This document shows positions 20,746 to 45,789 of a stretch of DNA of 64,000 nucleotides, in pieces. The stretch is from an uncultured Caulobacteraceae bacterium (GTDB taxonomy: Bacteria; Pseudomonadota; Alphaproteobacteria; Caulobacterales; Caulobacteraceae), in NCBI GenBank assembly GCA_964235945.1, contig CAXSDV010000003.1, positions 32,601 to 96,600 on the forward strand, in the 5' to 3' direction. Below the pieces are notes generated by a model. It did not search any database, was not told where the DNA came from, and saw nothing but the letters and a program-made list of their open reading frames with translations. A program made the position numbers and the translations under genes. Each line of letters opens with the position of its first letter. Positions within the stretch are counted from its first letter, which is position 1.

Positions 20746-22365
20746 TCATCGCGGCGGGTTGAGCAGGCGGGCGACGTCCGCCTCGCGCTCCACGGAGGGG
20801 CGCAGGTCCGGCGCGTGGCGCAGGTGGGAGGCCGCCTCGTAGGCCGCGCCAAGGCGCAGCAGATCGGCCTCGCGCCAGGGGCCGGCGATGAAGGACAGGC
20901 CCACGGGCAGGCCGCGCACATAGCCCATGGGCACGGTCAGGTGCGGATAGCCGGCGACGGCGGCGAGGGAGGTCGCGCCCTCGCCCTCCACATGGTCGCC
21001 GTCCACCGCGTCCGACAGCCAGGCGGGGCCGGTGGTGGGGGCGATCAGCGCGTCCAGCCGATGCTGGGCCAGGAGCTTGTCGATCCCGTCCGGCCCCGCC
21101 GCCTGCAGCGAGTCGGCGCGCGCCTGCAGGTAGGCGTGGTCGGACAGCCCCCCGGTCGCCTGGGCCGTCTCGAACTCGTCCTGGCCGAACAGGGCCAGCT
21201 CGCGCGGGTCCGCGCGGTTGAAGGCGATCAGGTCGGCCAGGGTGCGGGTGCGCACCTTCGCCGGGTCGGTGGAGGCGAGGTAGGCGTTCAGGTCCACCTT
21301 CAGCTCCGTCATCAGCACCTTGAACTCGTTGGCGGCGAGGTCGCCCGGCGGCCGGTAGTCGGCGATGTCGACCAGTTCGGCCCCCTGGGCGCGCAGGGTC
21401 GCCAGCGCCGCGGCGAACAGCGCCTTTTCGGGGGGCGACACGTCCGCGGCGTAGCGCAGCACGCCCAGCCGCTTGCCGCGCAGGGTCGCGCCCCGCAGGG
21501 CGGCGACATAGTCGACGCGGTGGGAGTCGGCGGCGGCGGTGGCCGCGTCCTCGGGGTCGGAGCCCGCCATGGCGGTGAGCAGGGCGGCGGCGTCCGCCAC
21601 CGTGCGCGCCATGGGGCCGGCGGTGTCCTGGCTGTGGCTGATGGGCGCGATGCGCGTGCGCGACACGAGCCCCACCGTGGGTTTCAGCCCCACCAGCCCG
21701 TTCACGGACGAGGGGCAGGTGATCGAGCCGTCGGTCTCCGTGCCCACGCCGGCCGCCGCCAGGTCCGCCGCCACCGCCGCTCCCGTGCCGGAGGAGGAGC
21801 CGCAGCTGTTGCGGTCGAGCGCGTAGGGGTTCCTCACCAGGCCCCCCGTCCCCGACCAGCCGGAGATGGACCGCGCCGAGCGGATGTTGGCCCATTCCGA
21901 CAGGTTGGTCTTGCCCAGGATCACCGCCCCCGCCGCCCTCAGGCGCGCCGCCACCGGCGCGTCGCGCCCCGTCACGTTCGCCGCCAGCGCCAGGGAGCCC
22001 GCGGTGGTGGCCATGCGGTCGCGCGTCTCGACATTGTCCTTGAGGAGGATCGGCACGCCGTGGAGCGGGCCGCGCACCCGCCCCGCCCGGCGCTCGGCGT
22101 CCAGGGCGCGCGCCTGGGCGAGCGCGTCCGGGTTGAGCGCGATCACGCTGTGCAGCGCGGGCCCCGCCCGGTCGATCCGGCGGATGCGGAGGAGGTAGGC
22201 GCGGGTCAGCGCCTCGGAGCTGGTGCGCCCGGCGGCCAGGTCCGCGGCGAGCTCGGCGATCGACCGCTCGGCCGCTGCGGGCGCGGGGCGGCGCGGCGGC
22301 GCGGCCCGGGCGCCGGAAGCCAGCACCAGGGCGGCGAGGAGGGCGGGCGGGAGCGCGAGTCGCAT
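20746..22365 (-). CDS. Secreted amidase (amidase-signature family)
   Basis: Part of ORF 20746..22422, starting at ATG 22365 (MRLALPPALLAALVLASGARA signal). GVPILLKDN, GGSSSGTGAAVAA, GTETDGSITCPS are amidase-signature (AS) motifs. Confidence 0.85.
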   Translation of the reverse strand: MRLALPPALLAALVLASGARAAPPRRPAPAAAERSIAELAADLAAGRTSSEALTRAYLLRIRRIDRAGPALHSVIALNPDALAQARALDAERRAGRVRGPLHGVPILLKDNVETRDRMATTAGSLALAANVTGRDAPVAARLRAAGAVILGKTNLSEWANIRSARSISGWSGTGGLVRNPYALDRNSCGSSSGTGAAVAADLAAAGVGTETDGSITCPSSVNGLVGLKPTVGLVSRTRIAPISHSQDTAGPMARTVADAAALLTAMAGSDPEDAATAAADSHRVDYVAALRGATLRGKRLGVLRYAADVSPPEKALFAAALATLRAQGAELVDIADYRPPGDLAANEFKVLMTELKVDLNAYLASTDPAKVRTRTLADLIAFNRADPRELALFGQDEFETAQATGGLSDHAYLQARADSLQAAGPDGIDKLLAQHRLDALIAPTTGPAWLSDAVDGDHVEGEGATSLAAVAGYPHLTVPMGYVRGLPVGLSFIAGPWREADLLRLGAAYEAASHLRHAPDLRPSVEREADVARLLNPPR

Positions 22366-22526: not shown

Positions 22527-22883
22527 TTGAGAACCGTCCTGACCGCCGCCCTCGCCGCGGCCTGCGTGTGCGCCGCCGCGGCGCCCGCCTCCGCCTCGCC
22601 CTACGCGATCGACAAGCTGCACGACCGCGAGAACCGCATCCAGGACGCGGTGGACCAGCGCCGCGCGTCCACCCGGGTGGGCGACCAGCTGATCCGGGTC
22701 AAGAAGCTGGAGGAGCGGATGCGCGCGCGCCACGGGTCCAACCTGACGCGCGCCGATTTCGAGGTCCTGAACGCCAGGCTCGACGCGCTCGAAGGCGTGC
22801 GCCACCGCCACCGCCGCGGCGCCGACCACGGCCGCAGCGGGCCCCACCAGATCACGACCACCACGACCACCGTCAGGCGTTGA
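22527..22883 (+). CDS. Small secreted hypothetical protein
   Basis: 118 aa. TTG start preceded by AGGGGGA. Signal peptide MRTVLTAALAAACVCAAAAPASA, a charged helical middle, and a His/Arg- and Thr-rich tail (ITTTTTTVRR). Confidence 0.55.
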   Translation: MRTVLTAALAAACVCAAAAPASASPYAIDKLHDRENRIQDAVDQRRASTRVGDQLIRVKKLEERMRARHGSNLTRADFEVLNARLDALEGVRHRHRRGADHGRSGPHQITTTTTTVRR

Positions 22884-24621
22884 CCTCCAGGGCGGCCGCC
22901 AGCGCGCCGGCGTAGCGGGCGCGGGCGCGCAGGAGCCGCGCGTGCTCGGCCGGCCAGCCCGCGTGGGCGTCCGCCGCCATGCTCCACAGGCCGAGCTGGA
23001 AGGCGAGGTAGGCGAGCGTGTGGAAGGCGAGCCGTTCGCCGTCCACCACGAGGTCCCGCGCGAGGCGGGCGGCGGCCGCGGCGTCCAGGGCGAGTTCCAC
23101 CTGGGCGCCCGCCACGTCCCAGGCCACGTCCTGGGCGCCGATCAGGTCGTGGGCGCGGGCGTGGTCCAGCGCGTCGGTCTTGAGCAGGCCGCCGTCGGGC
23201 GGGAGCATCCACTCGTGCAGGTGCAGCCGGTTGTCGGTCCACACGCGCCGGCCGCGCGCGGCGAGGGCGGCCAGGCGCGGCTCCCACGCGTCCAGCGGTC
23301 GCGCGGCCTCTTCGCCCAACGCTTCCGCGGCGTTGGCGCGCGCCATGGCGAGGAGGGTCCGCAGGTCCGCCCCGTCGCCTTCCCCGGCGGGGAAAGCCCG
23401 CGCGCGGAAGGCGAGGTGGGCGCCCACCGCGGCGGCGGCGCGTCCGCGGTCGGCGGGCGTGTCCGCCAACGGGCGCGCGCCCTCCAGCCAAGGCTCCACC
23501 AGCCAGCCGCCGCGCAGCGCCAGCGGCTCGGGCGAGAGGCCGGCGGCGTGCAGCGCCCGGGCGCGGGCGAGCTTGGCCGCGCCCTCGCGGCCGCCCAGCC
23601 CCGCCCACTTGAGGCGGAACGCGCCGCGCGCCGTCTCCAGGCGGAACTTGAGCCGCTCGGCGCCGGCGTCCACGGCGGGCCAGTGCGCCTCCTCCGCGTA
23701 GAGGCGCGCGCGCCAGGCCCCGCCGGACAGGTCCTCCAGCGGGCCGAGGGCGGGGCCGACCACGTCCTCCAGTCGCCGCGCCAGCCCCCGAACCGCGTCG
23801 TGCGGGTCGAGCTCGGGACGGTCGCCGCCCGCGACGCGGCGGGTCGCCGCCCAGCGCGCGCGGCGCACCTCCCCCGCCTGCGGGCCGAGGTCGCCGGCGT
23901 GGCCGGGCAGGGCCACCAGCCGCGCGCGGTCCACGCCGGCCGCCTCCAGCGCGTCCAGCGCCGCGGCGAGGGAGGAGCCCGACAGGCCCGGTCCCTCGTC
24001 GGCCACCGCCCAGGTGCGCCCGGCCTCGCGCCGCCACTCGGCCAGGAGCGGCGGGGCGACGGCGAGCCGGCGGTCGAACGGGTGGCCGACCGGGCGCACG
24101 GTGACGGGAACGGGGGCGCCCACCGCCGCCGCCGCCATGGCCGCTAGCCCCGCGCCGATGGAGCGCAGGCCCAGCACCCGGCTTTGCGCGTCCAGCCCCG
24201 CGGCGCGCGCGGCCTCCGCGTGGCCCTCGGGCTGGAGCGCATAGAAGGCGTAACCCTCCGCCAGCCGCACCTCGACCTCCGGCGGGAAGGGCAGGGCGGC
24301 CAGCGCTTCGGCCGAGGCGGGCGCGCACGGCGCGTCGCCCTCGAAGCCCGCGCGCCAGGAGGCGTCCACACGCCGGGCGAGATCGGTCAGCCACGTCATC
24401 GCGGCGGCGTGCAGAGGGGTGCGCGCGTCTTCGCCGGTATCCGCGAACTCGGCGTCGACCAGGCCCTGGACGAGGGCGGCGGCGTCCACGAAGGCGTCCG
24501 TCAGCCGGGCGTGGCGCGCCGCTCCGGCGGGCGCGGCCGCCAGCCCCGCCAGTTCGGCGCGGATGCGGCGGAGTTCGGCGGCGGGGTCCAGCCGGGAGAC
24601 GGCGTCGCCGTAGACGATCAC
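22873..24621 (-). CDS. Hypothetical 582-aa two-domain protein (C-terminal half weakly kinase/APH-like); last gene of the ino1 operon
   Basis: Part of ORF 22873..24819, starting at GTG 24621 (GTGA overlap with the upstream phosphatase stop). The C-terminal half has FRLKWAG...HLHEWMLPPDGGLLKTDALDH..DLIGAQDVAWD, reminiscent of aminoglycoside/choline-kinase-type folds. The mid-region AVADEGPGLSGSS is weakly PRPP-loop-like. Function unknown. Confidence 0.6.
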   Translation of the reverse strand: MIVYGDAVSRLDPAAELRRIRAELAGLAAAPAGAARHARLTDAFVDAAALVQGLVDAEFADTGEDARTPLHAAAMTWLTDLARRVDASWRAGFEGDAPCAPASAEALAALPFPPEVEVRLAEGYAFYALQPEGHAEAARAAGLDAQSRVLGLRSIGAGLAAMAAAAVGAPVPVTVRPVGHPFDRRLAVAPPLLAEWRREAGRTWAVADEGPGLSGSSLAAALDALEAAGVDRARLVALPGHAGDLGPQAGEVRRARWAATRRVAGGDRPELDPHDAVRGLARRLEDVVGPALGPLEDLSGGAWRARLYAEEAHWPAVDAGAERLKFRLETARGAFRLKWAGLGGREGAAKLARARALHAAGLSPEPLALRGGWLVEPWLEGARPLADTPADRGRAAAAVGAHLAFRARAFPAGEGDGADLRTLLAMARANAAEALGEEAARPLDAWEPRLAALAARGRRVWTDNRLHLHEWMLPPDGGLLKTDALDHARAHDLIGAQDVAWDVAGAQVELALDAAAAARLARDLVVDGERLAFHTLAYLAFQLGLWSMAADAHAGWPAEHARLLRARARYAGALAAALEVNA

Positions 24622-25136
24622 GGGGCGGCGGCGTCCTCGCGCAGGTGGCGGTAGGCGATCGCCGCGAAGGCGTCGAAGTCCGGCGCGGCGATCCCCCGCG
24701 CCTCCAGCCACGCCGCCCAGGCCCCGTACTGGGCGGGCGAGGGTGAGACCTGCCAGCGGGCGGCCTTGGCGCGCTCCAGCGCGTCCAGGGGGGTCGCCCC
24801 CGCGTCCACCAGCGCGCACAGCGCCAGCAGGGCCGAGCGGCCCACCCCTTCGCGGCAGTGGACCACCGCGCGGCGGCCGCGCACGAACGCCACGCCCCGG
24901 TCGAGGTCGGCGCCCGTGACGGCGTGGTGGTCGGGGGTGGGCAGGTGCAGGAAGGCGATCCCCGCCGCCGCCAGCGCCCCCGGGTCGTCGCGGGCCTCCG
25001 CGCGCAGGTCCACGGCCGCGGTCACGCCCTGCGCGCCCAGGGCGGGCCAGGCCGAGGTCGGCAGCTCGCCCGCCACGGCGAGGTCCGGCGTGATCCAGTC
25101 GAGGTTCAACGCCCCGGCCGGCGCGGCCCCGGTCAC
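24618..25136 (-). CDS. Dual-specificity / PTP-like phosphatase (HCX5R)
   Basis: Part of ORF 24618..25808, starting at GTG 25136 (GTGA overlap). 172 aa with the active-site loop VVHCREGVGRSAL. Confidence 0.8.
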   Translation of the reverse strand: MTGAAPAGALNLDWITPDLAVAGELPTSAWPALGAQGVTAAVDLRAEARDDPGALAAAGIAFLHLPTPDHHAVTGADLDRGVAFVRGRRAVVHCREGVGRSALLALCALVDAGATPLDALERAKAARWQVSPSPAQYGAWAAWLEARGIAAPDFDAFAAIAYRHLREDAAAP

Positions 25137-26053
25137 GCCGGGGCGGACCGGGGCGCGGCGGCGGCGGCGGGCGCCGGGGCGTAGCGCTCCACCATCTCCG
25201 TGCAGAAGTCGGCGAAGGCGGACGGGTCGCGCGGGGCGCTGGTGTGGTGCGGCTCGATCCCCAGCTCCTCCGGGGTGAAGCAGAAGGTCGTGGTGACGTC
25301 GAAGCCGGCCAGCGCCTCCATCTGCCGGTCGAACCAGTCGAGCGCGCCCGGGCGCAGGCGGTCGGCCCAGGAGAGGCCCGTGCGCAGGTAGGTGACGCCC
25401 AGCTCCTTCATCCAGCGCACCGCGTCGTCCAGCCGGTGGTCCTCGTAGTGGAACCATTGGCACAGCCCCAGGCCGTCGGGGCCGGCGTGGGGCCGGAAGG
25501 CCTCCAGCGCCTTCTTGGGCCGGCCGGTCTCGTCCAAGAGGCCCATGGCGAAATGGCGGTAGTAGGAGGAGCCCTCCGCCTCCTTGTGGCGGGTGGTCGC
25601 CTCCCAGGCCTGGGGCAGGTCGTAGAGCGAGTACCAGTGGATGCGCGGCGCCCGGCCGACCAGAAGTTCGGCGCTGCGCGTGACGCCCCAGGCGGCCACC
25701 TCCTCCGCCCCGAAGGAGGAGACGCCCACCTCGCTGACCCACAGGGGCCGGTCGCCGATCACCGGGCGGATCTCGTCGAGCTTGCTCGGCCAGTCGTGGA
25801 TCGACCACAGGTTCCAGTCGAGCGGGAAGCCGTGCACGGCCACCACGTCGATCTCGTCCATCGCGCCGTAGCCGGTCAGTCGGTTGATGAAGGAGGGGTC
25901 GATGGGGCTCATCCCGCCCAGCACCCGGGGCAGGCGCGGGTTGGCGGCCTTGATCGCGCGGCCGCCCGCCTTCACGAGGTCGCCGAACTTGGACCAGTCC
26001 GGGTCGACGCCGGGGTCCCAGTGGCTCTTGTTGTTGGGCTCGTTCCAGATCAT
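25133..26053 (-). CDS. Clan GH-A TIM-barrel glycosidase-like protein, apparently circularly permuted
   Basis: Part of ORF 25133..26623, starting at ATG 26053. Begins MIWNEPNN (acid/base NEP motif), then VAVHGFP, LWVSEVG (nucleophile-type E) and HWYSLYD. Only after these come the segments that normally lie at the N-terminus: MKELGVTYLRTGLSWADRL...DWFDRQM...FDVTTTFCF...FADFCTEMVERY. Confidence 0.65.
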   Translation of the reverse strand: MIWNEPNNKSHWDPGVDPDWSKFGDLVKAGGRAIKAANPRLPRVLGGMSPIDPSFINRLTGYGAMDEIDVVAVHGFPLDWNLWSIHDWPSKLDEIRPVIGDRPLWVSEVGVSSFGAEEVAAWGVTRSAELLVGRAPRIHWYSLYDLPQAWEATTRHKEAEGSSYYRHFAMGLLDETGRPKKALEAFRPHAGPDGLGLCQWFHYEDHRLDDAVRWMKELGVTYLRTGLSWADRLRPGALDWFDRQMEALAGFDVTTTFCFTPEELGIEPHHTSAPRDPSAFADFCTEMVERYAPAPAAAAAPRSAPA

Positions 26054-26064
26054 CGCCGCTTCGA

Positions 26065-26679
26065 TCAAGGGCGGGGCTCCTGTGGGATGGCCGGGGCCAG
26101 GGCGTTGACGCGCAGCACCTTGGCCCCCCAGTCGCCGGTGACGACGGTGGTGACGGAGGCGGGCGAGATCTCGAGGCGGTGGTGCAGGTCCAGGCCGATT
26201 CCCAGCCACCAGCACACCAGCGCCTTGACGATGTCCGAGTGGCACACGGCCACCACCGTCCCGTCCGGGTGGGCGGCCGCCATCTCCTGCACGGCGCGGG
26301 CGGCGCGCACCTGCGCCTCGCCCAGGCTCTCGCCGTTCGGCGGGCGGTTGAGCGAGCGGCGCTCGTTCCAGGCGGTCCAGCGCGGGTCGGCTTGCAGTTC
26401 GTCGAAGGTCATCCCCGTCCAGTCGCCGAAGTCGACCTCGACCAGGCCGGGCGTCTCCACCAGCGGGGCGCCCAGCGCCTCGGCCAGGGGGGCGGCGGTC
26501 TCCCGCGCGCGCTGGAGCGGGCTCGTGTGGACGGCGTCGGCGCCCTCGGGGATCAGCGTGGCGACCCGGCGCGCCTGGGCGTGGCCCTCGTCGGACAGGC
26601 CCACCCCCTCCATGCGCCCGCACAGCACCCGGTTCAGCCGGCCGTGCGTCCCGTGGCGCACGAGGTGCAGGAGGGTCAC
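26065..26679 (-). CDS. Histidine phosphatase family protein (phosphoglycerate-mutase-like)
   Basis: Part of ORF 26065..26862, starting at GTG 26679 (GTGA overlap with the ino1 stop). [11 protein letters not shown] (RHG motif), [19 protein letters not shown]. Confidence 0.85.
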
Positions 26680-27788
26680 GCCGGCCCCGCGATGAAGGCC
26701 TCCACCTTGGCGCGCGCCTCCTCGTCGGTGAACTGCACGGCCGGGCTCTTCATGAACCAGGCGGAGGGGCCCTCCAGCGCGCCGCCCACCCCGCGGTCGA
26801 GCGCCAGCTTGGCGCAGCGCACCGCGTCGATCACCACGCCGGCGCTGTTGGGGCTGTCCCACACCTCCAGCTTGAGCTCGATGTTGAGCGGCACGTCGCC
26901 GAAGGTCGTGCCCTCCAGGCGGATGAAGGCGAACTTCCGGTCGGTCAGCCAGGGCACGAAGTCGCTGGGGCCGACGTGGACGTCGCCGGCGGGCAGGGGC
27001 GTCTCCAACTGGCTGGTGACGGCCTGGGTCTTGCTGATCTTTTTGGACTCGAGCCGCTCGCGCTCCAGCATGTTCTGGAAGTCGGCGTTGCCGCCCACGT
27101 TGAGCTGGTAGGTGCGGTCCAGCCGCACGCCGCGCTCGCGGAACAGGTTGGCCAGCACCCGGTGGACGATGGTGGCGCCCACCTGGCTCTTGATGTCGTC
27201 GCCCACGATGGGCAGGCCCGCCGCTTCGAAGCGCGCGCGCCAGGCGGGGTCCGACGCGATGAACACCGGCACGCAGTTGACGAAGCCGCAGCCCGCCGCC
27301 AGCGCCGCCTCCGCGTAGTGCTCCGTGGCCGCCTGGCTGCCCACGGGCAGGTAGGAGATCACCACGTCCGCTCCCGCCTCGCGCAGGGCGGCGGCCACGT
27401 CGCAGGGCGCTTCGGCCGCTTCGGGCACCTCGTCCTTCAGGTACTTGCCGATGCCGTCCAGCGTCGGCCCCCGCCGCACGACCACGCCGCGGGGCTCGGG
27501 CCGGGCGAACACGTGGGTGTTGTTGGGGCCGGCGAAGATCGCCTCCGACACGTCGCGCCCCACCTTGGCGGCCGACACGTCAAAGGCGGCGGCCACCTCG
27601 ATGTCCTCGATGCGGTAGCCGCCCAGGTCCGGGTGCATGAGCCCCGGGACGGGCGCGTTGGAGCGCACGCCCGAATAGTGCGCCAGCCCCTGCACGAAGG
27701 AGGAGGCGCAGTTGCCCACGCCCACGATCCCCACGCGCAGCTTGCGGCGCGACGGTTCGGTCGAGGGGGGGTGCAGCGATCCGTCCAT
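26676..27788 (-). CDS. ino1: myo-Inositol-1-phosphate synthase
   Basis: 370 aa. [112 protein letters not shown]. Near-collinear with mycobacterial/archaeal-type Ino1 as recalled. Confidence 0.93.
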
Positions 27789-27870
27789 CCGTGTCCGTAC
27801 GGTCAGCCTCGGGAAGCTTTGTAGCCTAGACGGACGGGCCCGCCCCCGCCAGCGGGTTTGTTGATCCGCC

Positions 27871-27896
27871 GGAACGGGTTATGACAAGGCCACGTT
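27871..27896 (+). promoter_or_regulatory. Consensus EcfG-type general-stress promoter (GGAAC-N17-CGTT)
   Basis: GGAAC gggttatgacaaggcca CGTT is a perfect match to the alphaproteobacterial EcfG consensus. It lies 34 nt upstream of the ATG at 27930 in the ino1-divergent intergenic region. Confidence 0.7.
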
Positions 27897-27898
27897 TC
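27873..27898 (-). promoter_or_regulatory. Reverse-strand reading of the same site: GAAAC-N17-CGTT facing ino1
   Basis: The site is a near-palindrome (GGAACG...CGTTTC). On the minus strand it reads GAAAC gtggccttgtcataacc CGTT, with one mismatch in the -35, about 85 nt upstream of the ino1 ATG (27788). Confidence 0.3.
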
Positions 27899-27929
27899 GG
27901 GCGGGCAACCGCCAAGCCCGGAGAAGCCC

Positions 27930-28199
27930 ATGTCCGCCGCCGAAACCATCATCGACCACGACCAGATCAAGAAGTGGGCCGAGTCGCGCGGCGGCCGCCC
28001 CTCCAAGGTGCAGACCAAGGACGCCCACGACGGTTCGGGCATCCTGCGGTTCGATTTCCAGGAGAAGGACGAGAACCTAGAGGAGATCTCCTGGGAGGAG
28101 TTCTTCCAGATCTTCGACGACAACAAGCTCGCCTTCCTCGAGCAGGACAAGACCGCCAGCGGCGCCACCAGCCGCTTCTTCAAGTTCGTGAAAAGGTAG
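27930..28199 (+). CDS. Small acidic conserved hypothetical protein (stress-regulon type)
   Basis: 89 aa: MSAAETIIDHDQIKKWAESRGGRPSKV...ILRFDFQEKDENLEEISWEEFFQIFDDNKLAFLEQD. I recall similar small proteins widely in Alpha/Betaproteobacteria, often mis-annotated. Visibly lower GC than the flanks. EcfG motif upstream, and SD GGAGAAG before the ATG. Confidence 0.7.
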   Translation: MSAAETIIDHDQIKKWAESRGGRPSKVQTKDAHDGSGILRFDFQEKDENLEEISWEEFFQIFDDNKLAFLEQDKTASGATSRFFKFVKR

Positions 28200-28221
28200 G
28201 CGTCAATGGAGCGACCCGCGC

Positions 28222-29331
28222 GTGGCTGAGACCGTCCTGATCACCGGCGGGGCCGGCTTCATCGGCCGTTACGTGGCCGACGAGCTTCTCGCCCGGGGCT
28301 GCCACGTGCGGGTGCTCGACTCGCTGATCGAGCAGGTCCACGGCGGCCGGGGCCGGCCGCCGGAACTGTCGAAGGAGGTAGAGCTCGTCGTGGCCGACGT
28401 GCGCGACGAAACGGAGGTGCTCAAGGCGCTCCACGGCGTGGACAGCGTGGTCCACCTCGCCGCCGAGGTGGGGGTGGGCCAGAGCATGTACGCGGTGGAC
28501 CGCTACACCTCCGTCAACGACCACGGCACCGCGGTGCTGTTCCAGCAGCTGATCGCCAAGCCCGTGCGGCGGGTGGTGACGGCCTCCTCCATGTCGATCT
28601 ACGGCGAGGGGCTGTACCGCGACGCGGACGGCGCCTTGCACGAAGAGGTGGTGCGTGGGGGCCGCAACGCCGACGGGAGCTGGGACCCGCAGGACGCCCG
28701 GGGCCGCCCGCTCACGCCGGCGCCTACGCCCGAGTGGAAGCGTCCGACGCTGGCCAGCATCTACGCCCTGGGCAAGTACGTGCAGGAGCGCATGACGCTG
28801 ACGCTCTGCCCGCCCTACGGCATGGAGTGCTCGGCCCTGCGCCTGTGGAACGCCTACGGGCCGGGCCAAGCGCTCTCCAACCCCTACACGGGCGTGCTGG
28901 CGATCTTCTCCTCGCGCCTCGCCAACGGCCAGGCCCCGCTCGTGTTCGAGGACGGGATGCAGCAGCGCGACTTCGTGCACGTGCGCGACGTGGCGCGCGC
29001 CTTCGCCGCCGCGCTCTACGAACCCCGGGCGGACGGCCAGGTGTTCAACATCGGCTCGGGCGACGTATTCACGGTCAACCAGGTGGCCGCCGCGGTGGCC
29101 AAGGCCATGGGCGTGGACGCCGAGCCGCAGGTCGCCGGCAAGGCGCGCACCGGCGACATCCGCCACTGCATCCCCGACATCTCCAAGGCGCGCGGCGAGC
29201 TGGGCTTCGCGCCGAGGGAGGACTTCATGGCGGGCCTCGCCGAGCTCGCCGAATGGGTCGGCCGCCAGGAGGCGGTGGACAACGTGGCCCACGCCGCCAA
29301 GGAGCTGGAGACGCGGGGGCTGGTCGTATGA
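28222..29331 (+). CDS. NAD-dependent epimerase/dehydratase (extended SDR) with a large internal insertion
   Basis: 369 aa, GTG start. [27 protein letters not shown] (YxxxK), and a ~40-aa insertion (DADGALHEEVVRGGRNADGSWDPQDARGRPLTPAPTP). Confidence 0.8.
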   Translation: MAETVLITGGAGFIGRYVADELLARGCHVRVLDSLIEQVHGGRGRPPELSKEVELVVADVRDETEVLKALHGVDSVVHLAAEVGVGQSMYAVDRYTSVNDHGTAVLFQQLIAKPVRRVVTASSMSIYGEGLYRDADGALHEEVVRGGRNADGSWDPQDARGRPLTPAPTPEWKRPTLASIYALGKYVQERMTLTLCPPYGMECSALRLWNAYGPGQALSNPYTGVLAIFSSRLANGQAPLVFEDGMQQRDFVHVRDVARAFAAALYEPRADGQVFNIGSGDVFTVNQVAAAVAKAMGVDAEPQVAGKARTGDIRHCIPDISKARGELGFAPREDFMAGLAELAEWVGRQEAVDNVAHAAKELETRGLVV

Positions 29332-30410
29332 GCGACGGCGAGGCCCCCGTCCTCGTCACGGGCGGGGCGGGCTTCATCGGCTGCAACATCGCCGACCGCC
29401 TGCTGCGCGACGGCCACCGGGTGCGCGTCTACGACAAGCTGGCGCGGGCGGGGGTGGAGGCCAACCTCGACTGGCTGCGCGGCCGCCACGGCGACCGGGT
29501 GGAGGCGGTGGTCGCCGACGTGCGCGACCGCGCCGCCCTGGCCGCCGCCGCCCAGGGCGTGTCCGCCGTGTTCCACATGGCCGCCCAGGTGGCGGTCACC
29601 ACCAGCCTCGTCGACCCGGTGGAGGACTTCGAGGTCAACCTGGGCGCGACCCTGGCCCTCTTGGAGGCGCTGCGCGCCCAGGGCGGGCGCATTCCGCTGG
29701 TGTTCGCCTCCACCAACAAGGTCTACGGCGACCTGGCGGACGTGGAGTTCCACCTGGAGGGCGAGCGTTACGTTCCGGCCGACGCGGCGCTCGCGGCCCA
29801 CGGGGTGGGCGAGGGCCGGCCGCTCGACTTCCACACGCCCTACGGCTGCAGCAAGGGCGCGGCCGACCAGTACGTGCTCGACTACGCCCGCAGCTACGAC
29901 CTGCCCACCTGCGTCATGCGCATGTCCTGCGTGTACGGCCCGCGCCAGATGGGCACGGAGGACCAGGGCTGGGTGGCGCACTTCCTGATCCGCGCGCTGG
30001 AGGGCGAGCCGATCACCCTCTACGGCGACGGCCGCCAGGTGCGCGACATCCTGCAGGTGGGCGACGTGGTGGAGGCCTACCTGGCCGCCTGGCGCGACAT
30101 CGAGGCGGTGCGCGGCCGCGCCTTCAACCTGGGCGGCGGGCCGGACAACGCGGTCAGCCTGCGCGAGCTCCTGGCCTACATCGGCGAGCTCACCGGCCGC
30201 CCCGTCGACGTGGCCTACGCCGACTGGCGCCGGGGCGACCAGCGCTACTTCGTCGCCGACATGCGCGCCGCGCAGTCCGCCCTGCGCCTCGCCCCCCGCA
30301 CCGACTGGCGCGACGGCGTGGCGGGCCTGGCCGACTGGCTGGCCGAGCACCGCGGCCTGCGCCGCAACGCCCCCCTTTCCGCCGCGCCCGCCCTCGCCGG
30401 CGCGGGCTGA
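29328..30410 (+). CDS. NAD-dependent sugar epimerase (CDP-paratose 2-epimerase-like extended SDR)
   Basis: Part of ORF 28734..30410, starting at ATG 29328 (ATGA overlap). [63 protein letters not shown]. Confidence 0.8.
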   Translation: MSDGEAPVLVTGGAGFIGCNIADRLLRDGHRVRVYDKLARAGVEANLDWLRGRHGDRVEAVVADVRDRAALAAAAQGVSAVFHMAAQVAVTTSLVDPVEDFEVNLGATLALLEALRAQGGRIPLVFASTNKVYGDLADVEFHLEGERYVPADAALAAHGVGEGRPLDFHTPYGCSKGAADQYVLDYARSYDLPTCVMRMSCVYGPRQMGTEDQGWVAHFLIRALEGEPITLYGDGRQVRDILQVGDVVEAYLAAWRDIEAVRGRAFNLGGGPDNAVSLRELLAYIGELTGRPVDVAYADWRRGDQRYFVADMRAAQSALRLAPRTDWRDGVAGLADWLAEHRGLRRNAPLSAAPALAGAG

Positions 30411-30468: not shown

Positions 30469-31434
30469 TTGACCGAGACCATGCGCGCCGCCGTCGTCAC
30501 CGGGGCCGGCGTCGCCGAGACCCGCGACGCCCCACGCCCGGAGCCCGGCCCCGGCCAAGTGCGGCTGAAGCTGGAGGGGTGCGGGGTGTGCGCCTCCAAC
30601 CTCGGGCCCTGGTCCGGGCCGGAGTGGATGCAGTTCCCCACCGCCCCCGGCGACCTCGGCCACGAGGGCTGGGGCGCCGTGGACGCGGTGGGCGAGGGCG
30701 TGGAGGGGCTCGCCGTGGGCGACCGGGTGGCGGCGCTCAGCTTCAAGAGCTACGCCCAGTACGATCTGGCCGAGGCCGACGCGGTGGTGCGCCTGCCCGA
30801 GAGTCTGGCCGGCCGCGCCTTTCCGGGCGAGCCGCTGGCCTGCGCCATGAACATCTTCCGCAGGAGCCAAGTGGAGGCGGGTCAGACCGTGGCCATCGTC
30901 GGCATAGGCTTCCTGGGCGCGATCCTGACGCGGCTGTGCGTGCAGGCGGGCGCCCGGGTGATCGCGATCTCGCGCCGCGCCTACAGCCTGCAGGTGGCGC
31001 GCGACATGGGGGCCGCCGAGACCATCCCCATGGACGACCACTGGGCGATCATCGAGCAGGTGAAGCAGCTCACCGACGGCGTGTTCTGCGACCGGGTGAT
31101 CGAGGCGGTGGGCAAGCAATGGCCGCTGGACCTCGCCGCCGAGCTGACCCGCGAGGGCGGGCGGCTGATCATCGCCGGCTACCACCAGGACGGGCCGCGC
31201 CAGGTGAACATGCAGATGTGGAACTGGCGCGGCTTCGACGTGGTCAACGCCCACGAGCGCGACCCGAAGATGTACGTGCGCGGCCTGCGCGAAGCGGTGG
31301 AGGCGGTGAGCTCCGGCCGGCTCGACCCCGCGCCGCTGTTCACCCACACCTACCCGCTGGAGCGGCTGGGCGAGGCGCTGGACGCGACGCGCGACCGGCC
31401 GGACGGCTTCCTCAAGGCGCTGGTGACCCTGTGA
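30469..31434 (+). CDS. Zinc-dependent alcohol/polyol dehydrogenase (MDR family)
   Basis: 321 aa. TTG start preceded by GAAGGA; an ATG at 30481 is an alternative. GCGVCASN, GHEGWG, GDRV, and the Rossmann motif VAIVGIGFLG. Confidence 0.8.
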   Translation: MTETMRAAVVTGAGVAETRDAPRPEPGPGQVRLKLEGCGVCASNLGPWSGPEWMQFPTAPGDLGHEGWGAVDAVGEGVEGLAVGDRVAALSFKSYAQYDLAEADAVVRLPESLAGRAFPGEPLACAMNIFRRSQVEAGQTVAIVGIGFLGAILTRLCVQAGARVIAISRRAYSLQVARDMGAAETIPMDDHWAIIEQVKQLTDGVFCDRVIEAVGKQWPLDLAAELTREGGRLIIAGYHQDGPRQVNMQMWNWRGFDVVNAHERDPKMYVRGLREAVEAVSSGRLDPAPLFTHTYPLERLGEALDATRDRPDGFLKALVTL

Positions 31435-32435
31435 GCGCGCGCCCCCGAGTCGGCTTCCTGGGTGCGGGCTGGATCGGCCGCCACCGCATGGAGGCGATCC
31501 TCGCCACGGGCGCGGTGGAGGCCGTCGCCGTGGCCGAGCCGTCGGACGAGGCCGCCGCGGCCGCCCTGGCGCTGGCGCCCGGGGCCGTGCGCGCGGCCGA
31601 TCTCGACGCCCTGCTGGCCCTGGGCCTGGACGGCGTGGTGATCGCCACCCCGAGCGCGCTCCACGCCGCCCAGACGACCGCGGCGCTGGCGAAGGGCGCG
31701 GCGGTGTTCTGCCAGAAGCCGCTGGGCCGCACCGCCGCCGAGACGCGGGGCGCGGTGGAGGCGGCGCGCGCCGCCGACCGGCTGCTGGCGGTGGACCTCT
31801 CCTACCGCTTCACCGACGGCGCGCGGCGCATCCGCGACCTCGTGCGCGCGGGCGAGCTCGGGCGCGTGTCGGTGTGCGACCTCGTGTTCCACAACGCCTA
31901 CGGGCCGGACAAGCCGTGGTTCTACGACCCCGCCCAGAGCGGCGGCGGGTGCCTGCTGGACCTGGGCGTCCACCTGGTCGACCTCGCGCTGTGGGTGCTG
32001 GACTTCCCGGCGGCGGGGCGCACCACCGCCGCGCTGATGGCCGGCGGCGAGTTCCTGGCCGGGCGCACCGACGTGGTGGAGGACTTCGCCGCCGTCGCTT
32101 TCGCCACGGACGCGGGCGCGCTGGTGCGCCTCGCCTGCTCGTGGAACCTGCCGGCGGGGCGCGACGCGGTGATCGGCGCCGCCTTCTACGGCGAGGGCGG
32201 CGGCGCGGCGCTGCGCAACCTCGACGGCTCGTTCTACGACTTCACCGCCGAGCGCTTCCGCGGCCAGGCGTGCGAGACGCTCACCCTGCCGCCGGAGGGC
32301 GGGGAGCCCTGGGGCGGGCGCGCCGCCGCCGACTGGGCGCGACGCCTCGCGGCCGGCGAGCGCTTCGACCCGCAGGCCGAGCGCCTGGTGGACGTGGCGC
32401 AGGTGCTCGACCGCCTCTACGGGCGCGAGGGGTGA
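31431..32435 (+). CDS. Gfo/Idh/MocA family oxidoreductase
   Basis: Part of ORF 30579..32435, starting at GTG 31431 (GTGA overlap). RVGFLGAGWIGRHR, VVIATPSALHA, FCQKPL (EKP-type motif). Confidence 0.85.
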   Translation: MSARPRVGFLGAGWIGRHRMEAILATGAVEAVAVAEPSDEAAAAALALAPGAVRAADLDALLALGLDGVVIATPSALHAAQTTAALAKGAAVFCQKPLGRTAAETRGAVEAARAADRLLAVDLSYRFTDGARRIRDLVRAGELGRVSVCDLVFHNAYGPDKPWFYDPAQSGGGCLLDLGVHLVDLALWVLDFPAAGRTTAALMAGGEFLAGRTDVVEDFAAVAFATDAGALVRLACSWNLPAGRDAVIGAAFYGEGGGAALRNLDGSFYDFTAERFRGQACETLTLPPEGGEPWGGRAAADWARRLAAGERFDPQAERLVDVAQVLDRLYGREG

Positions 32436-32467: not shown

Positions 32468-33034
32468 TCAGGCCGCGGCGCGGTCCGATCGTGTGGTCGC
32501 GCCGAGCGCCTCGATCAGCTTGGCGCAGAAGGCGGGCAGGTCGTCCGGGTCGCGGCTGGTGATGAGGTTGCCGTCGACCACCACCTCCTCGTCGACCACC
32601 TGCGCTCCGGCGTTCTCCAGGTCGGTGCGGATGGTCTTGTAGCTGGTCAGGCGACGCCCCTTGGCCACGCCCGCGTCGATCAGGATCCAGGGCGCGTGGC
32701 AGATCACCGCCGCGGGCTTGCCGGCGTCGAAGAAGGCGCGGACGAACTGCTGCACGGCGGGCAGGGTGCGCAGGGCGTCGGGGTTGTTGGCCCCGCCGGG
32801 CAGCACCAGGGCGTCGAACTTGGCGGGGTCCGCGTCGTCCAGCGTCATGTCCACCGGGCAGGTCTTGTCGGGCTTGATGTGGTCGAAGCCCTGGATCTCT
32901 CCGGACTTCAGCGAGACCACCACCGTCTTGGCGCCCGCCTTCTCCAGTTCGGCCTTGGGGGTGAACAGTTCGGCCTCCTCGAAGCCGTCGGTGGCGAGGA
33001 TGGCGACGGTCTTGCCGGACAGGTCGGCGGGCAT
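32468..33034 (-). CDS. DJ-1/PfpI family protein (type 1 glutamine amidotransferase-like)
   Basis: 188 aa. KTVAILATDGFEE.E, LVLPGG, AAVICHAPWILIDAG (nucleophile elbow C-H), GNLITSR. Confidence 0.88.
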   Translation of the reverse strand: MPADLSGKTVAILATDGFEEAELFTPKAELEKAGAKTVVVSLKSGEIQGFDHIKPDKTCPVDMTLDDADPAKFDALVLPGGANNPDALRTLPAVQQFVRAFFDAGKPAAVICHAPWILIDAGVAKGRRLTSYKTIRTDLENAGAQVVDEEVVVDGNLITSRDPDDLPAFCAKLIEALGATTRSDRAAA

Positions 33035-33099: not shown

Positions 33100-34185
33100 G
33101 TGAAGCTCGCCATGACCGCCGACGCGGTGGGCGGCGTGTGGACCTACGCCCTGGACCTCGCCCGCGCGCTGCGCCCCCACGGCGTGGAGACGACGCTGCT
33201 GGTCGTCGGCCCCGCCCCCGCCGAGCCGCCCGGCGACTTGGAGGTGGTCGCCACCGGCCTGCCGCTAGACTGGTTGGCGCAGGGGCCCGGCGAGGTGGAG
33301 AGCGCGGGCCGCGCCCTGGCCGACCTCGCGGCGGACGCCCGCGCCGACCTCGTCCAGCTCAACAGCCCGGCCTATGCTGCGGCCGCGCGCTTCGCCGTTC
33401 CGGTGGTGGGCGTGCAGCACTCCTGCACCGCCACCTGGTGGCGCGCGGTCAGGGGCGAGGCTCCCGCGCCCGCCGACTTCGCCTGGCGGCGCGACCTGGC
33501 GCGGCGGGGCCTCCTGGCCTGCGCCCGCACCGTCGCCCCCACCCGCGCCTTTGCGGACGCGGTGGGCGCCGAGTACGCGCTGGAGCGGGCCCCCGCCGCC
33601 GTTTGGAACGGCCGCCGCGCCCTCGTCCCGGACGCGGAGGCGTCCGAGCCCGCCGAGCCCTACGTGATGACCGCCGGCCGGCTGTGGGACGAGTCCAAGG
33701 GCATGGCGGTGCTGGACGCGGCCGCCGCGCGCTTGTCGGTTCCCGTGATCGCCGCCGGCCCGCTGGCCGCGCCCGGCGGCGGGGAGGCGGCCTTCGCGCA
33801 CCTGCGGGCGACGGGGCTGCTGCCCGCGGCCGAACTGCGGGCGCGGCTGGCGGGGGCGGCGGCCTTCGTCTCGCCTTCGCTGTACGAGCCGTTCGGGCTG
33901 GCGGTGCTGGAGGCGGCGCAGCTGGCGCGACCGCTGGTGCTGTCCGACATCGCGACCCTGCGCGAGTTGTGGGACGGGGCGGCGGTGTTCACCCCTCCCG
34001 GAGACGCCCCGGCCCTGACCGCCGCCTTGGAGGCGCTGCTGGCCGACCCGTCGCGCCGCGCGGCCCTCGCCGCCGCCGCCGCCGCCCGCGCCCGCCGCTA
34101 CACGGTGGAGGCCATGGCCCGGGGCATGGCGGCGATCTACGCCCCGTTGACGGGACTCGCCCTCGGGCGGGGATCAGCTACATAG
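33100..34185 (+). CDS. Glycosyltransferase family 4
   Basis: 361 aa; GTG 33100, or ATG 33112. ADAVGGVWTYALDLA..., C-terminal EX7E region FVSPSLYEPFGLAVLEAA. Confidence 0.8.
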   Translation: MKLAMTADAVGGVWTYALDLARALRPHGVETTLLVVGPAPAEPPGDLEVVATGLPLDWLAQGPGEVESAGRALADLAADARADLVQLNSPAYAAAARFAVPVVGVQHSCTATWWRAVRGEAPAPADFAWRRDLARRGLLACARTVAPTRAFADAVGAEYALERAPAAVWNGRRALVPDAEASEPAEPYVMTAGRLWDESKGMAVLDAAAARLSVPVIAAGPLAAPGGGEAAFAHLRATGLLPAAELRARLAGAAAFVSPSLYEPFGLAVLEAAQLARPLVLSDIATLRELWDGAAVFTPPGDAPALTAALEALLADPSRRAALAAAAAARARRYTVEAMARGMAAIYAPLTGLALGRGSAT

Positions 34186-34196
34186 CTCCTCGTCCC

Positions 34197-35318
34197 ATGC
34201 GCATCGCCTACTTCACCCACTCGCTCCGCTCCTGCTGGAACCACGGCAACGCGCACTTCCTGCGCGGCGTGCTGCGCGAACTCGCCCTGCGCGGCCACGA
34301 CGTGCGCGCGTTGGAGCCCGAGACGTCCTGGAGCCTGGAGAACCTCTTGGCCGACGCGGGGGAGGCCGGGCTCGACCCCTGGCGCGCCGCTTATCCCGAG
34401 CTGTCGCCCCAGACCTACGCGCCGGAGACGGACGCGGCGGACCTGATCGACGACGCCGAGCTCGTGGTCGTGCACGAGTGGAACGACCCGGCGCTGGTGG
34501 CCGCGATCGGCCGGGCGCGGGCGCGGGGCGGGCGCTTCACCCTCTTGTTCCATGACACCCACCATCGGGCGGTGAGCGATCCCGAAGCCATCCGCGCCTT
34601 TGATCTCGGCGGCTATGACGGCGTGCTGGCCTTCGGCGAGGCGCTGTCGCAGGTCTACCGCCGTTGGGGCTGGGGCGGGCGCGTGTGGACCTGGCACGAG
34701 GCCGCCGACACCCGCCTGTTCCGTCCGCCCGCGGTCGAGGGGGAGCGCGAGGGCCTGGTCTGGATCGGCAACTGGGGCGACGGCGAGCGCACGGAGGAGC
34801 TGGAGCGGTTCCTGTTCGAGCCCGCGCGCGAGGCGGGCCTGCCGCTGGAGGTGTACGGCGTCCGCTACCCGCCCGAGGCGCTGGCCCTGTTGGAGCGCTA
34901 CGGCGCCGTCCACCGCGGCTGGACCCCCAACGCCCGCGCGCCGGAGATTTTCGCCGCGCACCTGGCCACCGTGCACGTGCCCCGGCGCTACTACACGACC
35001 TTGCTCCCCGGCATCCCGACCATCCGCGTGTTCGAGGCGCTGGCCTGCGGCATACCCCTGGTGTCGGCCCCCTGGCGCGACGACGAGGCGCTGTTCCGCC
35101 GCGGCCAGGACTTCCTGATGGTCGAGGACGGGGAGGCCATGGCCGACGCCCTGCAGGACGTGGCGGAGGACGCCGACCTGCGCGCCCACCTGGTGGAGAG
35201 CGGCCTGCACACGATCCGAACCCGCCACACCTGCGCCCACCGCGCGGACGAGCTCCTGGCGGTGGCCGCCGCCCTGGGCGCGCCCGCCCCCGCCGCCGCC
35301 GAGGTTCCCGCCCCGTGA
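34197..35318 (+). CDS. CgeB-type (DUF3880-like) glycosyltransferase family protein, paralog 1
   Basis: Part of ORF 32661..35318, starting at ATG 34197. MRIAYFTHSLRSCWNHGNAHFLRGVLREL..RGH.V, IGNWGDGER, TIRVFEALACGIPLVS. Confidence 0.7.
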   Translation: MRIAYFTHSLRSCWNHGNAHFLRGVLRELALRGHDVRALEPETSWSLENLLADAGEAGLDPWRAAYPELSPQTYAPETDAADLIDDAELVVVHEWNDPALVAAIGRARARGGRFTLLFHDTHHRAVSDPEAIRAFDLGGYDGVLAFGEALSQVYRRWGWGGRVWTWHEAADTRLFRPPAVEGEREGLVWIGNWGDGERTEELERFLFEPAREAGLPLEVYGVRYPPEALALLERYGAVHRGWTPNARAPEIFAAHLATVHVPRRYYTTLLPGIPTIRVFEALACGIPLVSAPWRDDEALFRRGQDFLMVEDGEAMADALQDVAEDADLRAHLVESGLHTIRTRHTCAHRADELLAVAAALGAPAPAAAEVPAP

Positions 35319-39378: not shown

Positions 39379-39493
39379 GCCCGGCAGCGTTAAGGCCGCG
39401 ACCCCCGCGTGTCGATTGCGCGCGGCGCCCGCGCCCTTCCGGCGGCGGGCGGGCGCGGCTATGGCTGCGCTCGAACGGCGGGGAGTTCTGAAG

Positions 39494-40330: not shown

Positions 40331-40341
40331 GGAGCCCCGCC

Positions 40342-45731: not shown

Positions 45732-45763
45732 CCCGCCCACCCCCGCTCCGGCACGTCCGTCAC

Positions 45764-45789
45764 AACGTGAGTACGTGCGTCGTTGTTCC
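45764..45789 (-). promoter_or_regulatory. Consensus EcfG-type general-stress promoter (GGAAC-N17-CGTT) upstream of the CgeB4-MT-PIG-L-GT4-GNAT operon
   Basis: The reverse strand reads GGAAC aacgacgcacgtactca CGTT, a perfect consensus, in the 83-nt gap 24-33 nt upstream of the candidate start codons. Confidence 0.65.

Follow-up and report, generated by a model that had tools for sequence, protein, structure and literature searches.

The locus described here raises the question of what a bacterium makes with inositol phosphate when the synthase gene, ino1, heads an operon-like unit together with genes for two phosphatases of different superfamilies, a glycosidase-like barrel and a protein with a kinase-like domain. 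The unit lies in a 64,000-nucleotide stretch (the window) of contig CAXSDV010000003.1 from an uncultured Caulobacteraceae bacterium, and the initial annotation took it for an inositol-phosphate interconversion or tailoring route. Judged from its gene neighborhood, the ino1 operon is best read not as an inositol-phosphate tailoring route in its own right but as the putative inositol-supply and processing unit of a larger pathway. The cluster of ~19 genes to which it belongs has three transcription units, of which the operon is one, and we consider it somewhat more probable than the alternatives together (roughly 55%) that this apparently cytoplasmic system, which bears promoter motifs of the EcfG type, protects the cell against stress or desiccation by making a glycoside or short oligosaccharide that contains inositol and is often methylated. 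By homology, the cluster encodes a myo-inositol-3-phosphate synthase (MIPS), a branch-1 histidine phosphatase, a barrel with the catalytic pair of clan GH-A glycoside hydrolases (GH), a phosphatase with a dual-specificity phosphatase active site, a kinase fold, glycosyltransferases (GT), short-chain dehydrogenases/reductases (SDR), a methyltransferase and a PIG-L-family deacetylase. The five operon products are referred to below as Ino1, HisP (the histidine phosphatase), GHcp (the permuted GH-like barrel), DSP (the HCX5R phosphatase) and p582 (a 582-aa protein).

All five open reading frames (ORFs) are present on the minus strand from 27788 to 22873, as previously annotated. With a window G+C content of ~75%, long chance ORFs are common, and the G+C content at individual codon positions was therefore taken as the coding test. 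Each of the five genes has a third-position value (GC3) of 0.95-0.98 and a second-position value (GC2) of 0.48-0.60, and the high-GC3 frame changes exactly at the proposed gene junctions, which argues that the five frames are real coding sequence and not chance ORFs. Three GTGA overlaps are found at 26679-26676, 25136-25133 and 24621-24618. The remaining junction, in front of GHcp, had been described as an 11-nt gap, which presumes a start at ATG 26053. However, GHcp homologues (40 sequences) keep an extra N-terminal M-IEAA peptide, whose start codon in related loci, GTG or ATG, shares bases with the upstream stop codon; Azospirillum has Lys in place of the inner Met. The GHcp gene of the window thus most likely starts at TTG 26068 within a TTGA overlap, so that all four junctions would be 4-nt overlaps. 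With such overlaps, translational coupling between the five genes is plausible, though not proven, and a single operon-like unit with coupled junctions is supported; the further claim that the proteins are made stoichiometrically was overstated. On either side of the operon are a divergent gene, which starts at 27930, and a convergent one, which ends at 22883. In a simple scan of 22600-28300, no sigma-70-like promoter and no operon-strand terminator within the operon were found, and the two terminator-like matches (1.1 expected) lie upstream of the operon (28143-28127, minus strand) and opposite to operon transcription (26012-26028, plus strand). No Rfam family matched in 22000-46500, and defense-system models gave no match.

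The interpretation depends on what accompanies these genes elsewhere. A scan for GHcp, with one genome per species, confirmed 587 relatives, for 80 of which the surrounding loci were retrieved and compared with the window proteins by tblastn; presence counts out of 52 refer to the loci with full 10-kb flanks. Across the 80 related genomes, a core of ino1, HisP and GHcp stands beside two NDP-sugar SDR genes (epi1 and epi2), a GT4-type glycosyltransferase (GT4) and three or four glycosyltransferases of family PF13524 (GT12a, GT12b, GT12c and GT12op in the window), usually together with a TIGR04290 methyltransferase. Of the 52 loci, 47 contain ino1, HisP and the methyltransferase (47 in each case), 43 GT4 and GT12a, 41 GT12b, 38 epi1, 36 epi2 and 27 GT12c, the last count being limited by flank length. 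HisP adjoins ino1 in 53 of the 58 loci holding both genes. These glycosyltransferase, SDR and methyltransferase neighbors, joined in some genomes by a PIG-L protein, point to a glycoside or oligosaccharide assembled on or with inositol.

Other parts of the cluster are optional. A Zn-dependent alcohol dehydrogenase (Zn-ADH) and a GFO/IDH/MocA oxidoreductase (GFO) occur in 19 and 22 of the 52 loci, respectively, GT12op together with a sugar-1-phosphate nucleotidyltransferase in 24 loci, and a TIGR04295 radical-SAM protein (706 bits versus a cut-off of 400) in 11. The PF00483 nucleotidyltransferase of these other loci matches sugar-1-phosphate nucleotidyltransferase models, all under cut-off. GHcp is followed in related loci by a PIG-L protein (13), a GT1-type glycosyltransferase (GT1x; 11) and an Acetyltransf_6 protein (AcT6; 11), with all three together in 10 loci, and homologues of GT12op and the methyltransferase sit inside the ino1 operon in other genomes. 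DSP is present in only 4 of the 52 full-flank loci and 11 of all 80, and p582 in 5 of the 52; p582 accompanies DSP in 9 of the 11 loci, and the contigs of the remaining two end shortly past the DSP gene. DSP and p582 are accessory genes of particular lineages. The complete gene order ino1-HisP-GHcp-DSP-p582, for which the initial annotation had called for a conservation check, recurs in four other species-level genomes (L007, L011, L012 and L015) and, with a methyltransferase gene inserted, in two loci (L019 and L027). All six are uncultured 'Caulobacteraceae' metagenome-assembled genomes (MAGs), which are also the closest relatives. The cluster context is alike in loci of Microvirga, Sphingomonas, Azospirillum, Inquilinus and Roseomonas. 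Some Gammaproteobacteria (Lysobacterales MAGs, Rudaea and Steroidobacter agaridevorans; L029, L032, L066 and L074) also carry the cluster, with Ino1 and GHcp at 64-73% identity, which suggests that the cluster has spread horizontally.

The second line of evidence comes from promoter motifs. In Alphaproteobacteria, sigma-EcfG promoters of the general stress response follow the consensus GGAAC-N16-17-CGTT, and exact agreement with it was used as the motif definition. One exact copy (GGAAC-N17-CGTT) lies at 27871-27896 on the plus strand, 34 nt before small89, the first gene of the divergent unit, and a copy with one mismatch (GAAAC-N17-CGTT) lies at 27898-27873 on the minus strand, 84 nt before the ino1 ATG. 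The two motifs overlap almost completely and face each other, the -35 element of one lying over the -10 element of the other, and the pair would serve the divergent ino1 and small89/epi units. The third unit is preceded by another exact copy (GGAAC-N17-CGTT; 45764..45789, minus strand), whose 3' end is ~24 nt upstream of the called start at 45740 (33 nt by the tblastn alignment start). Two exact motifs in the 64-kb window compare with 0.37 expected, and both precede cluster units. In a survey of 85 loci and the window, 66 exact motifs were found versus 16.9 in local shuffles, and 45 of the 66 lie at most 300 nt upstream of a same-strand cluster gene versus 1.17 expected from the shuffles; ino1 (23) and epi1 (14) are among the genes thus preceded in the related loci. 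The cluster is therefore, by sequence, one that carries sigma-EcfG general-stress-response promoter motifs, a feature that the initial annotation had missed. The literature search returned nothing relevant on EcfG/PhyR control of this cluster.

Within the window, the divergent plus-strand unit begins with small89 (27930..28199; 89 aa, GC3 0.94), which has no Pfam or NCBIfam match and whose homologues lie beside the cluster in other loci (L020, L028, L029, L035, L036, L062, L070 and L080). It is followed by epi1 (28222-29331) and epi2 (29328-30410), both NAD-dependent NDP-sugar epimerases/dehydratases of the SDR type (PF01370/PF16363) with weak, under-cut-off matches to GalE and dTDP-glucose 4,6-dehydratase models, and by the Zn-ADH (30469-31434; PF00107/PF08240) and the GFO (31431-32435; PF01408/PF22725). 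The best NCBIfam match of the GFO is inositol 2-dehydrogenase IolG (93 bits) and the third-best of the Zn-ADH is scyllo-inosose 3-dehydrogenase IolM (82 bits), both under cut-off; the two genes possibly form an optional module for inositol or sugar oxidation or epimerization. The unit continues with GT4 (33100-34185; PF13439/PF00534), GT12a (34197-35318), GT12b (35315-36427) and GT12c (36424-37491), the last three assigned to PF13524. The third unit is located on the minus strand ~7 kb past the end of the plus-strand unit and encodes GT12op (45740-44637), which is the fourth PF13524 glycosyltransferase of the window, the methyltransferase (44626-43844; TIGR04290, 364 bits, over the cut-off of 300), a PIG-L/LmbE-family deacetylase (43847-43011), GT1x (43014-41947) and the GNAT-like AcT6 (41941-40961), with 4-nt overlaps at 43844-43847 and 43011-43014.

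No PDB relative was found by sequence for a PF13524 glycosyltransferase or for the PIG-L protein, and NCBIfam holds no model for GHcp, p582, the PF13524 paralogues or small89. The cluster's TIGR04290 (Rta_06860-type methyltransferase) and TIGR04295 (B12-binding radical SAM, B12_rSAM_oligo) proteins are members of NCBIfam 'hypothetical equivalog' families, modeled by curators without an assigned function, and a literature search with these family names returned nothing on this cluster. Clear transmembrane segments are absent from all 19 cluster proteins, the sole borderline case being a hydropathy peak of 2.07 in the Zn-ADH, and so are evident signal-like N-termini; no exporter gene was found in the window cluster. 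The system thus appears from its sequences to be cytoplasmic.

The first operon gene, ino1 (26676..27788, minus strand; GC3 0.97), encodes a 370-aa MIPS homologue that matches PF01658 (5e-36) and aligns over its full length (residues 9-368) with Ino1 of M. tuberculosis (PDB 1gr0; 481 bits). The synthase of a five-membered cyclitol phosphate (6k96) is a more distant relative (200 bits), and MIPS activity, i.e. the formation of inositol-3-phosphate from glucose-6-phosphate, is therefore likely. Against TIGR03450, the protein scores 527 bits, under the equivalog cut-off of 638. The actinobacterial model 'mycothiol_INO1' is its top-scoring NCBIfam model, yet the score is below that model's cut-off.

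HisP (26065..26679, minus strand; 204 aa) carries the RHG motif at residue 8 and CHSD at residue 146 and matches PF00300 (7e-49) over 192 of 194 profile positions. Its best NCBIfam match is TIGR03848 (MSMEG_4193 family phosphatase/phosphomutase), of which it is not a member (152 bits, under the cut-off of 203.85), and its PDB relatives are phosphoserine phosphatase, CobC, fructose-2,6-bisphosphatase and glucosyl-3-phosphoglycerate phosphatase (GpgP). Neither branch-2 (PF00328) proteins nor histidine acid phytases were found among its Pfam and NCBIfam matches or the listed PDB relatives. On sequence grounds, HisP is a member of branch 1 of the histidine phosphatase superfamily (dPGM/CobC/GpgP-like) and not of the acid-phosphatase/phytase branch 2, and the proposed link to acid phytases is not supported. 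We propose HisP as a candidate phosphatase for inositol-3-phosphate or a glycosyl-inositol phosphate. A 509-aa HisP-GHcp 'fusion' (P0373, from the GHcp 90% cluster, on one metagenome contig) was rejected as Rosetta-stone evidence; its Arg-rich linker resembles out-of-frame read-through, so that an indel or an error of assembly probably accounts for it.

In mycobacteria, the genes for the histidine phosphatase Rv2135c and the UppP-like Rv2136c are predicted to share an operon, and no inositol substrates were tested in that work (PMC3866925). In the window, genes for a BacA/UppP undecaprenyl-diphosphatase and a PEBP-family protein (39461-40953, plus strand) lie between the second and third cluster units; the analogy between this UppP gene near the cluster and the Rv2135c/Rv2136c pairing is possibly a coincidence.

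GHcp (25133..26068, minus strand) comprises 311 aa from TTG 26068, or 306 aa from ATG 26053. By alignment and predicted structure, it is a natural circular permutation of a PslG/GH39-like (beta/alpha)8 barrel, in which the canonical strands beta4-beta8 come first and beta1-beta3 last. Residues 2-180 match PslG 136-319, and residues 182-292 match PslG 8-129. A profile built from eight family members whose C-terminal segment had been moved to the front, which restores the canonical order, aligned in one piece with PslG 25-320 (E 2e-8); of the native-order profile, only positions 3-186 align, to PslG 132-321. The AlphaFold2 (AF2) model (pLDDT 80) contains eight beta/alpha units, and a Foldseek search with it returned generic TIM barrels only, as is expected when an order-dependent aligner meets a permuted barrel. 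The catalytic pair consists of the Glu of IWNEPN on the first strand (residue 10 in 311-aa numbering) and the Glu of VSEVG on the fourth (residue 113), both invariant in 40 sequences at a mean column identity of 79%. GHcp thereby shares with GH-A/GH39-like enzymes the eightfold barrel, the acid/base Glu in the NEP motif and the nucleophile Glu three strands on, and departs from their canonical order (acid/base on beta4, nucleophile on beta7) in having them on strands 1 and 4. Pfam scores are under cut-off (PF01229, GH39, 14.5 versus 26 bits; PF07745, GH53, 13 versus 24 bits); these weak matches bear out the earlier description as a GH-A-like TIM barrel, in which the circular permutation had gone unnoticed.

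The GHcp family has >8000 database matches, which are mostly annotated as 'beta-xylosidase', with 71-91% identity among the matches listed, and the closest genes are those of uncultured 'Caulobacteraceae' MAGs (up to 87% identity). PslG, a GH39-like endoglycanase encoded in the psl exopolysaccharide operon of Pseudomonas, is the best solved-structure relative and likewise a glycosidase within a biosynthetic cluster, and its NEP acid/base and nucleophile Glu are kept in GHcp. Unlike PslG, GHcp is permuted, ~100 residues shorter and without an evident signal peptide or membrane anchor; its sequence opens at the catalytic NEP strand. A literature search returned no report on a circularly permuted GH39 enzyme bearing on this cluster.

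DSP (24618..25136, minus strand; 172 aa) is a small phosphatase of the dual-specificity/protein tyrosine phosphatase (PTP) fold. Its active site is complete, with an HCX5R P-loop (HCREGVGR, residues 93-100) and a general-acid Asp loop (PTPD, residues 66-69). It matches PF22785 (36 bits) and PF22784 (32 bits) over their 27-bit cut-offs, as well as PF22741 and PF00782, its family has 1077 matches, and its PDB relatives are a dual-specificity phosphatase (25xa), PTPMT1 (a weak match) and DUSP23. PTP-like phytases and inositol pyrophosphatases of the PhyA or Siw14 type are absent from its PDB and Pfam matches. Of the link to inositol-phosphate phosphatases made in the initial annotation, the fold thus stands, whereas the nearest relatives are generic small dual-specificity phosphatases, PTPMT1 and DUSP23.

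The last operon gene encodes p582 (22873..24621, minus strand), a two-part protein of 582 aa. It has no sequence match in Pfam, NCBIfam or PDB, even when a 41-sequence profile was used on PDB, and none of the 41 members matches Pfam even at E <=1 (PF01633, PF01636 and the phosphoribosyltransferase models included); its relatives are annotated only as hypothetical. The AF2 model (pLDDT 91.6, pTM 0.91) led Foldseek to LicA (4r77; E 8e-8, probability 1.0, target TM 0.61) and then to choline kinases, homoserine kinase, NahK and aminoglycoside phosphotransferases (APH), all matches being confined to the kinase domain. A bilobal fold like that of choline kinase (ChoK) and APH is thus confirmed in the predicted structure for the C-terminal half (~290-582), in which a DFG-like Asp (D483) and a following HDL...DIAWD segment are conserved. 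The earlier designation as kinase-like therefore holds for this half and had overlooked the additional N-terminal domain. In comparison with the ChoK/APH superfamily (LicA, homoserine kinase II, NahK and APH), p582 shares the predicted fold and lacks a sequence-level match and a recognizable Brenner motif (HxDxxxxN), and it carries ~290 extra N-terminal residues with invariant loops of their own. In an hhalign comparison with an approximate APH(3')-II sequence, the catalytic region did not align.

The N-terminal half of p582 consists of a helical region and an alpha/beta domain; in the latter, two loops that follow predicted strands, RSIG and DEGPGLSGSS, are invariant. These loops resemble the pyrophosphate and phosphoribosyl-pyrophosphate loops of type I phosphoribosyltransferases (PRTases), a resemblance in sequence and model that is not proven. 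At 50% identity, the p582 family falls into 2846 clusters, and of the best 150 nearly all align along the whole profile. The gene adjoins the cluster at four different positions across genomes, including those of Azospirillum, Inquilinus and Roseomonas. In Methylobacterium sp. ID0610 (L005:10001-12303), a p582 homologue is paired with a short, distant His_Phos_1 gene away from any ino1 cluster; the partial alignment of the His_Phos_1 protein with HisP shows 26% identity.

Several further genes border the cluster or interrupt it. The convergent ORF at 22527-22883 (plus strand; 118 aa) has a signal-like N-terminus and a His/Arg-rich C-terminal tail with a Thr run; its 3' end overlaps that of the p582 gene by 11 nt, and a homologue is found at the same place in one related locus (L006). 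Downstream of the ino1 operon, an amidase (PF01425) is encoded at 20746-22326 (minus strand), and another amidase (PF01425) gene directly follows GT12c (37482-38846, minus strand). A gene of the DJ-1/PfpI family (32468-33034, minus strand) splits the plus-strand unit between GFO and GT4, and no homologue of it was found in the related loci.

In the pathway that we envisage, Ino1 would, by homology, cyclize glucose-6-phosphate to inositol-3-phosphate, which HisP may dephosphorylate either directly or after glycosylation by a GT4-type enzyme. The latter order corresponds to the synthase-then-phosphatase logic by which mycothiol, glucosylglycerate, sucrose and trehalose are made. The SDR pair could supply a modified NDP-sugar, with which GT4 and the PF13524 paralogues would lengthen the chain, and the TIGR04290 methyltransferase, accompanied here by the PIG-L deacetylase and the GNAT-like transferase, would tailor the product. 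GHcp might trim, release or transglycosylate this product in the cytoplasm. More speculatively, the leading idea for DSP and p582 is that the pair adds a phosphate, or a group of the phosphoribosyl type, to a sugar or cyclitol hydroxyl on a pathway intermediate and removes it again.

A more specific and only tentative version, which we regard as rather unlikely in its entirety, would have the cluster produce an undescribed, stress-induced inositol glycoconjugate in many Alpha- and some Gammaproteobacteria by means of three new enzyme types. Where the PIG-L/GNAT-like module is present, the core of such a product would be GlcN-inositol, as in mycothiol and glycosylphosphatidylinositol anchors. 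HisP would be a glycosyl-inositol-phosphate phosphatase catalyzing the MshA2-type step, for which the enzyme of mycothiol synthesis is, to our knowledge, still unidentified. GHcp would function as a cytoplasmic transglycosylase or trimming enzyme, and p582, as a fusion of a PRTase-like and an atypical kinase-fold domain, would act with DSP to install and remove a phosphate or phosphoribosyl group on a cyclitol or sugar.

Among described systems, the nearest in logic is, by analogy, the early mycothiol pathway of Actinobacteria. Its early steps involve Ino1, MshA (GT4), the MshA2 phosphatase, MshB (a PIG-L deacetylase) and MshD (GNAT), the acceptor being glycosylated while phosphorylated and then dephosphorylated. 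The cluster likewise encodes a full-length Ino1 match, a GT4, a phosphatase, a PIG-L-family deacetylase and a GNAT-like transferase. In contrast to mycothiol synthesis, no MshC-type ligase was seen, GT4 and PIG-L score far under the MshA and MshB cut-offs, and the cluster adds three or four PF13524 glycosyltransferases, two SDRs, a methyltransferase, a glycosidase-fold protein, p582 and DSP. Furthermore, its host is proteobacterial, it carries EcfG motifs and no thiol chemistry is indicated. GpgS and GpgP (Rv2419c) of mycobacterial methylglucose lipopolysaccharide (MGLP) synthesis, an example of the two-step synthase/phosphatase routes that lead to glycoside solutes and primers, offer a second parallel in that a branch-1 histidine phosphatase acts in a glycoside pathway. 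MGLP and methylmannose polysaccharide (MMP) are cytoplasmic glycans that several glycosyltransferases assemble and methyltransferases modify. Here, however, the acceptor is presumably an inositol phosphate instead of 3-phosphoglycerate, and HisP is not an orthologue of GpgP (E ~1e-7).

Synthesis of di-myo-inositol phosphate (DIP), which is a stress solute, and of phosphatidylinositol (PI) also starts with MIPS. The dissimilarity to both that was noted in the initial annotation extends from the five operon genes, which include no CDP-alcohol transferase, to the wider cluster: neither the Pfam matches of the ~19 window cluster proteins nor the gene calls listed for seven loci include a CDP-alcohol phosphatidyltransferase, and the window cluster lacks a cytidylyltransferase of the inositol-phosphate cytidylyltransferase (IPCT) type. 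These comparisons suggest a cluster of an inositol-glycoside biosynthetic kind with several uncharacterized components, and the literature search found no published description of it, in agreement with the earlier remark that it was not recognized as a described bacterial pathway.

Several points weigh against the inositol-glycoside reading. The activities of all components are assigned by homology alone. GT4 is not an orthologue of MshA (28 bits versus a cut-off of 462) and the PIG-L protein scores far under the MshB and BshB cut-offs, so that the mycothiol-like logic is an analogy only. The window copy of ino1 is preceded only by the one-mismatch motif, and stress control is predicted from the motif. 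p582 does not recognizably show the canonical HxDxxxxN, the corresponding positions, as read from the alignment by spacing from the invariant D483, being D-N-R-L-H-x-x-E, and by its sequence it may not be a conventional kinase. When its N-terminal half was compared by hhalign with an approximate sequence of E. coli adenine phosphoribosyltransferase, the loops were in register, and the match was not significant (probability 3.4%, E 0.013). In principle, the inositol provided by Ino1 could serve other purposes, and with four to six glycosyltransferases the cluster could make a polymer instead of a small glycoside.

The main alternative for the roles of p582 and DSP is that the two proteins form a protein kinase/phosphatase pair, or a pseudokinase scaffold with a phosphatase, that switches pathway enzymes post-translationally. 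The complete DSP active site is of the protein-phosphatase type (HCX5R plus Asp loop), the catalytic loop of p582 is non-canonical and both genes are optional add-ons, as regulators often are. Nevertheless, the folds nearest to that of p582 belong to kinases of small molecules, namely LicA, choline kinase, homoserine kinase, NahK and APH, and not to protein kinases, and the best Pfam matches of DSP (PF22785, PF22784 and PF22741) are bacterial DSP-PTPase families named after polymorphic-toxin, 'Swiss Army Knife' and NAD-kinase-fused contexts, as distinct from classical signaling phosphatases. Moreover, several DSP-fold enzymes with non-protein substrates are known (PTPMT1, laforin and SEX4), and we consider protein-level regulation by this pair unlikely.

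Soluble inositol-phosphate interconversion, in which p582 would phosphorylate inositol or inositol phosphates and the two phosphatases would trim them to particular isomers, draws on the presence of MIPS, a kinase-fold protein and two phosphatase folds in one coupled operon and on the p582 gene standing alone with a His_Phos_1 gene in Methylobacterium sp. ID0610. Kinases of the APH/ChoK fold are also known to phosphorylate aminoglycosides, which contain cyclitols. However, HisP belongs to branch 1 and not to the phytase branch; p582 and DSP are optional (5 and 4 of the 52 loci), whereas ino1 and HisP are core genes; and the genes that constantly accompany them encode glycosyltransferases, NDP-sugar enzymes, a methyltransferase and the glycosidase-fold protein. 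The Methylobacterium His_Phos_1 protein, for its part, resembles HisP only distantly and over a partial length, and we know of no established inositol-polyphosphate kinase with a ChoK/APH fold. The interconversion or tailoring route of the initial annotation is accordingly not upheld and appears very doubtful.

No more probable is that the cluster makes a secreted or capsular exopolysaccharide, with GHcp as a trimming endoglycanase of the PslG/BcsZ type and inositol as a minor substituent or primer, since the several glycosyltransferases, NDP-sugar SDRs and PslG-like barrel that would fit it, glycosidases embedded in exopolysaccharide operons (e.g. PslG and BcsZ) being a known theme, are accompanied in the window cluster and the loci with listed genes by no Wzx/Wzy, ABC exporter, synthase, polyprenyl-phosphate transferase or outer-membrane export gene, and since the cluster proteins are without clear transmembrane segments or evident signal-like N-termini and GHcp opens at its NEP strand.

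Read as a stress-linked inositol-glycoside system, the cluster bears on a response that governs the survival of drying, salt and starvation in Alphaproteobacteria, including rhizobia, Methylobacterium, Sphingomonas, Azospirillum and bacteria of lichens and soil. Most effector genes of the general stress response are still without an assigned function, and of the candidate effectors encountered here this cluster ranks with the most conserved. With HisP, it provides a candidate class of enzyme for the phosphatase step that inositol-glycoside pathways are missing, and GHcp would bring a naturally permuted barrel to the GH-A glycosidases. Identification of the product would give functions to families labeled 'hypothetical' or mislabeled 'beta-xylosidase', and it could reveal a new inositol-based bacterial protectant.

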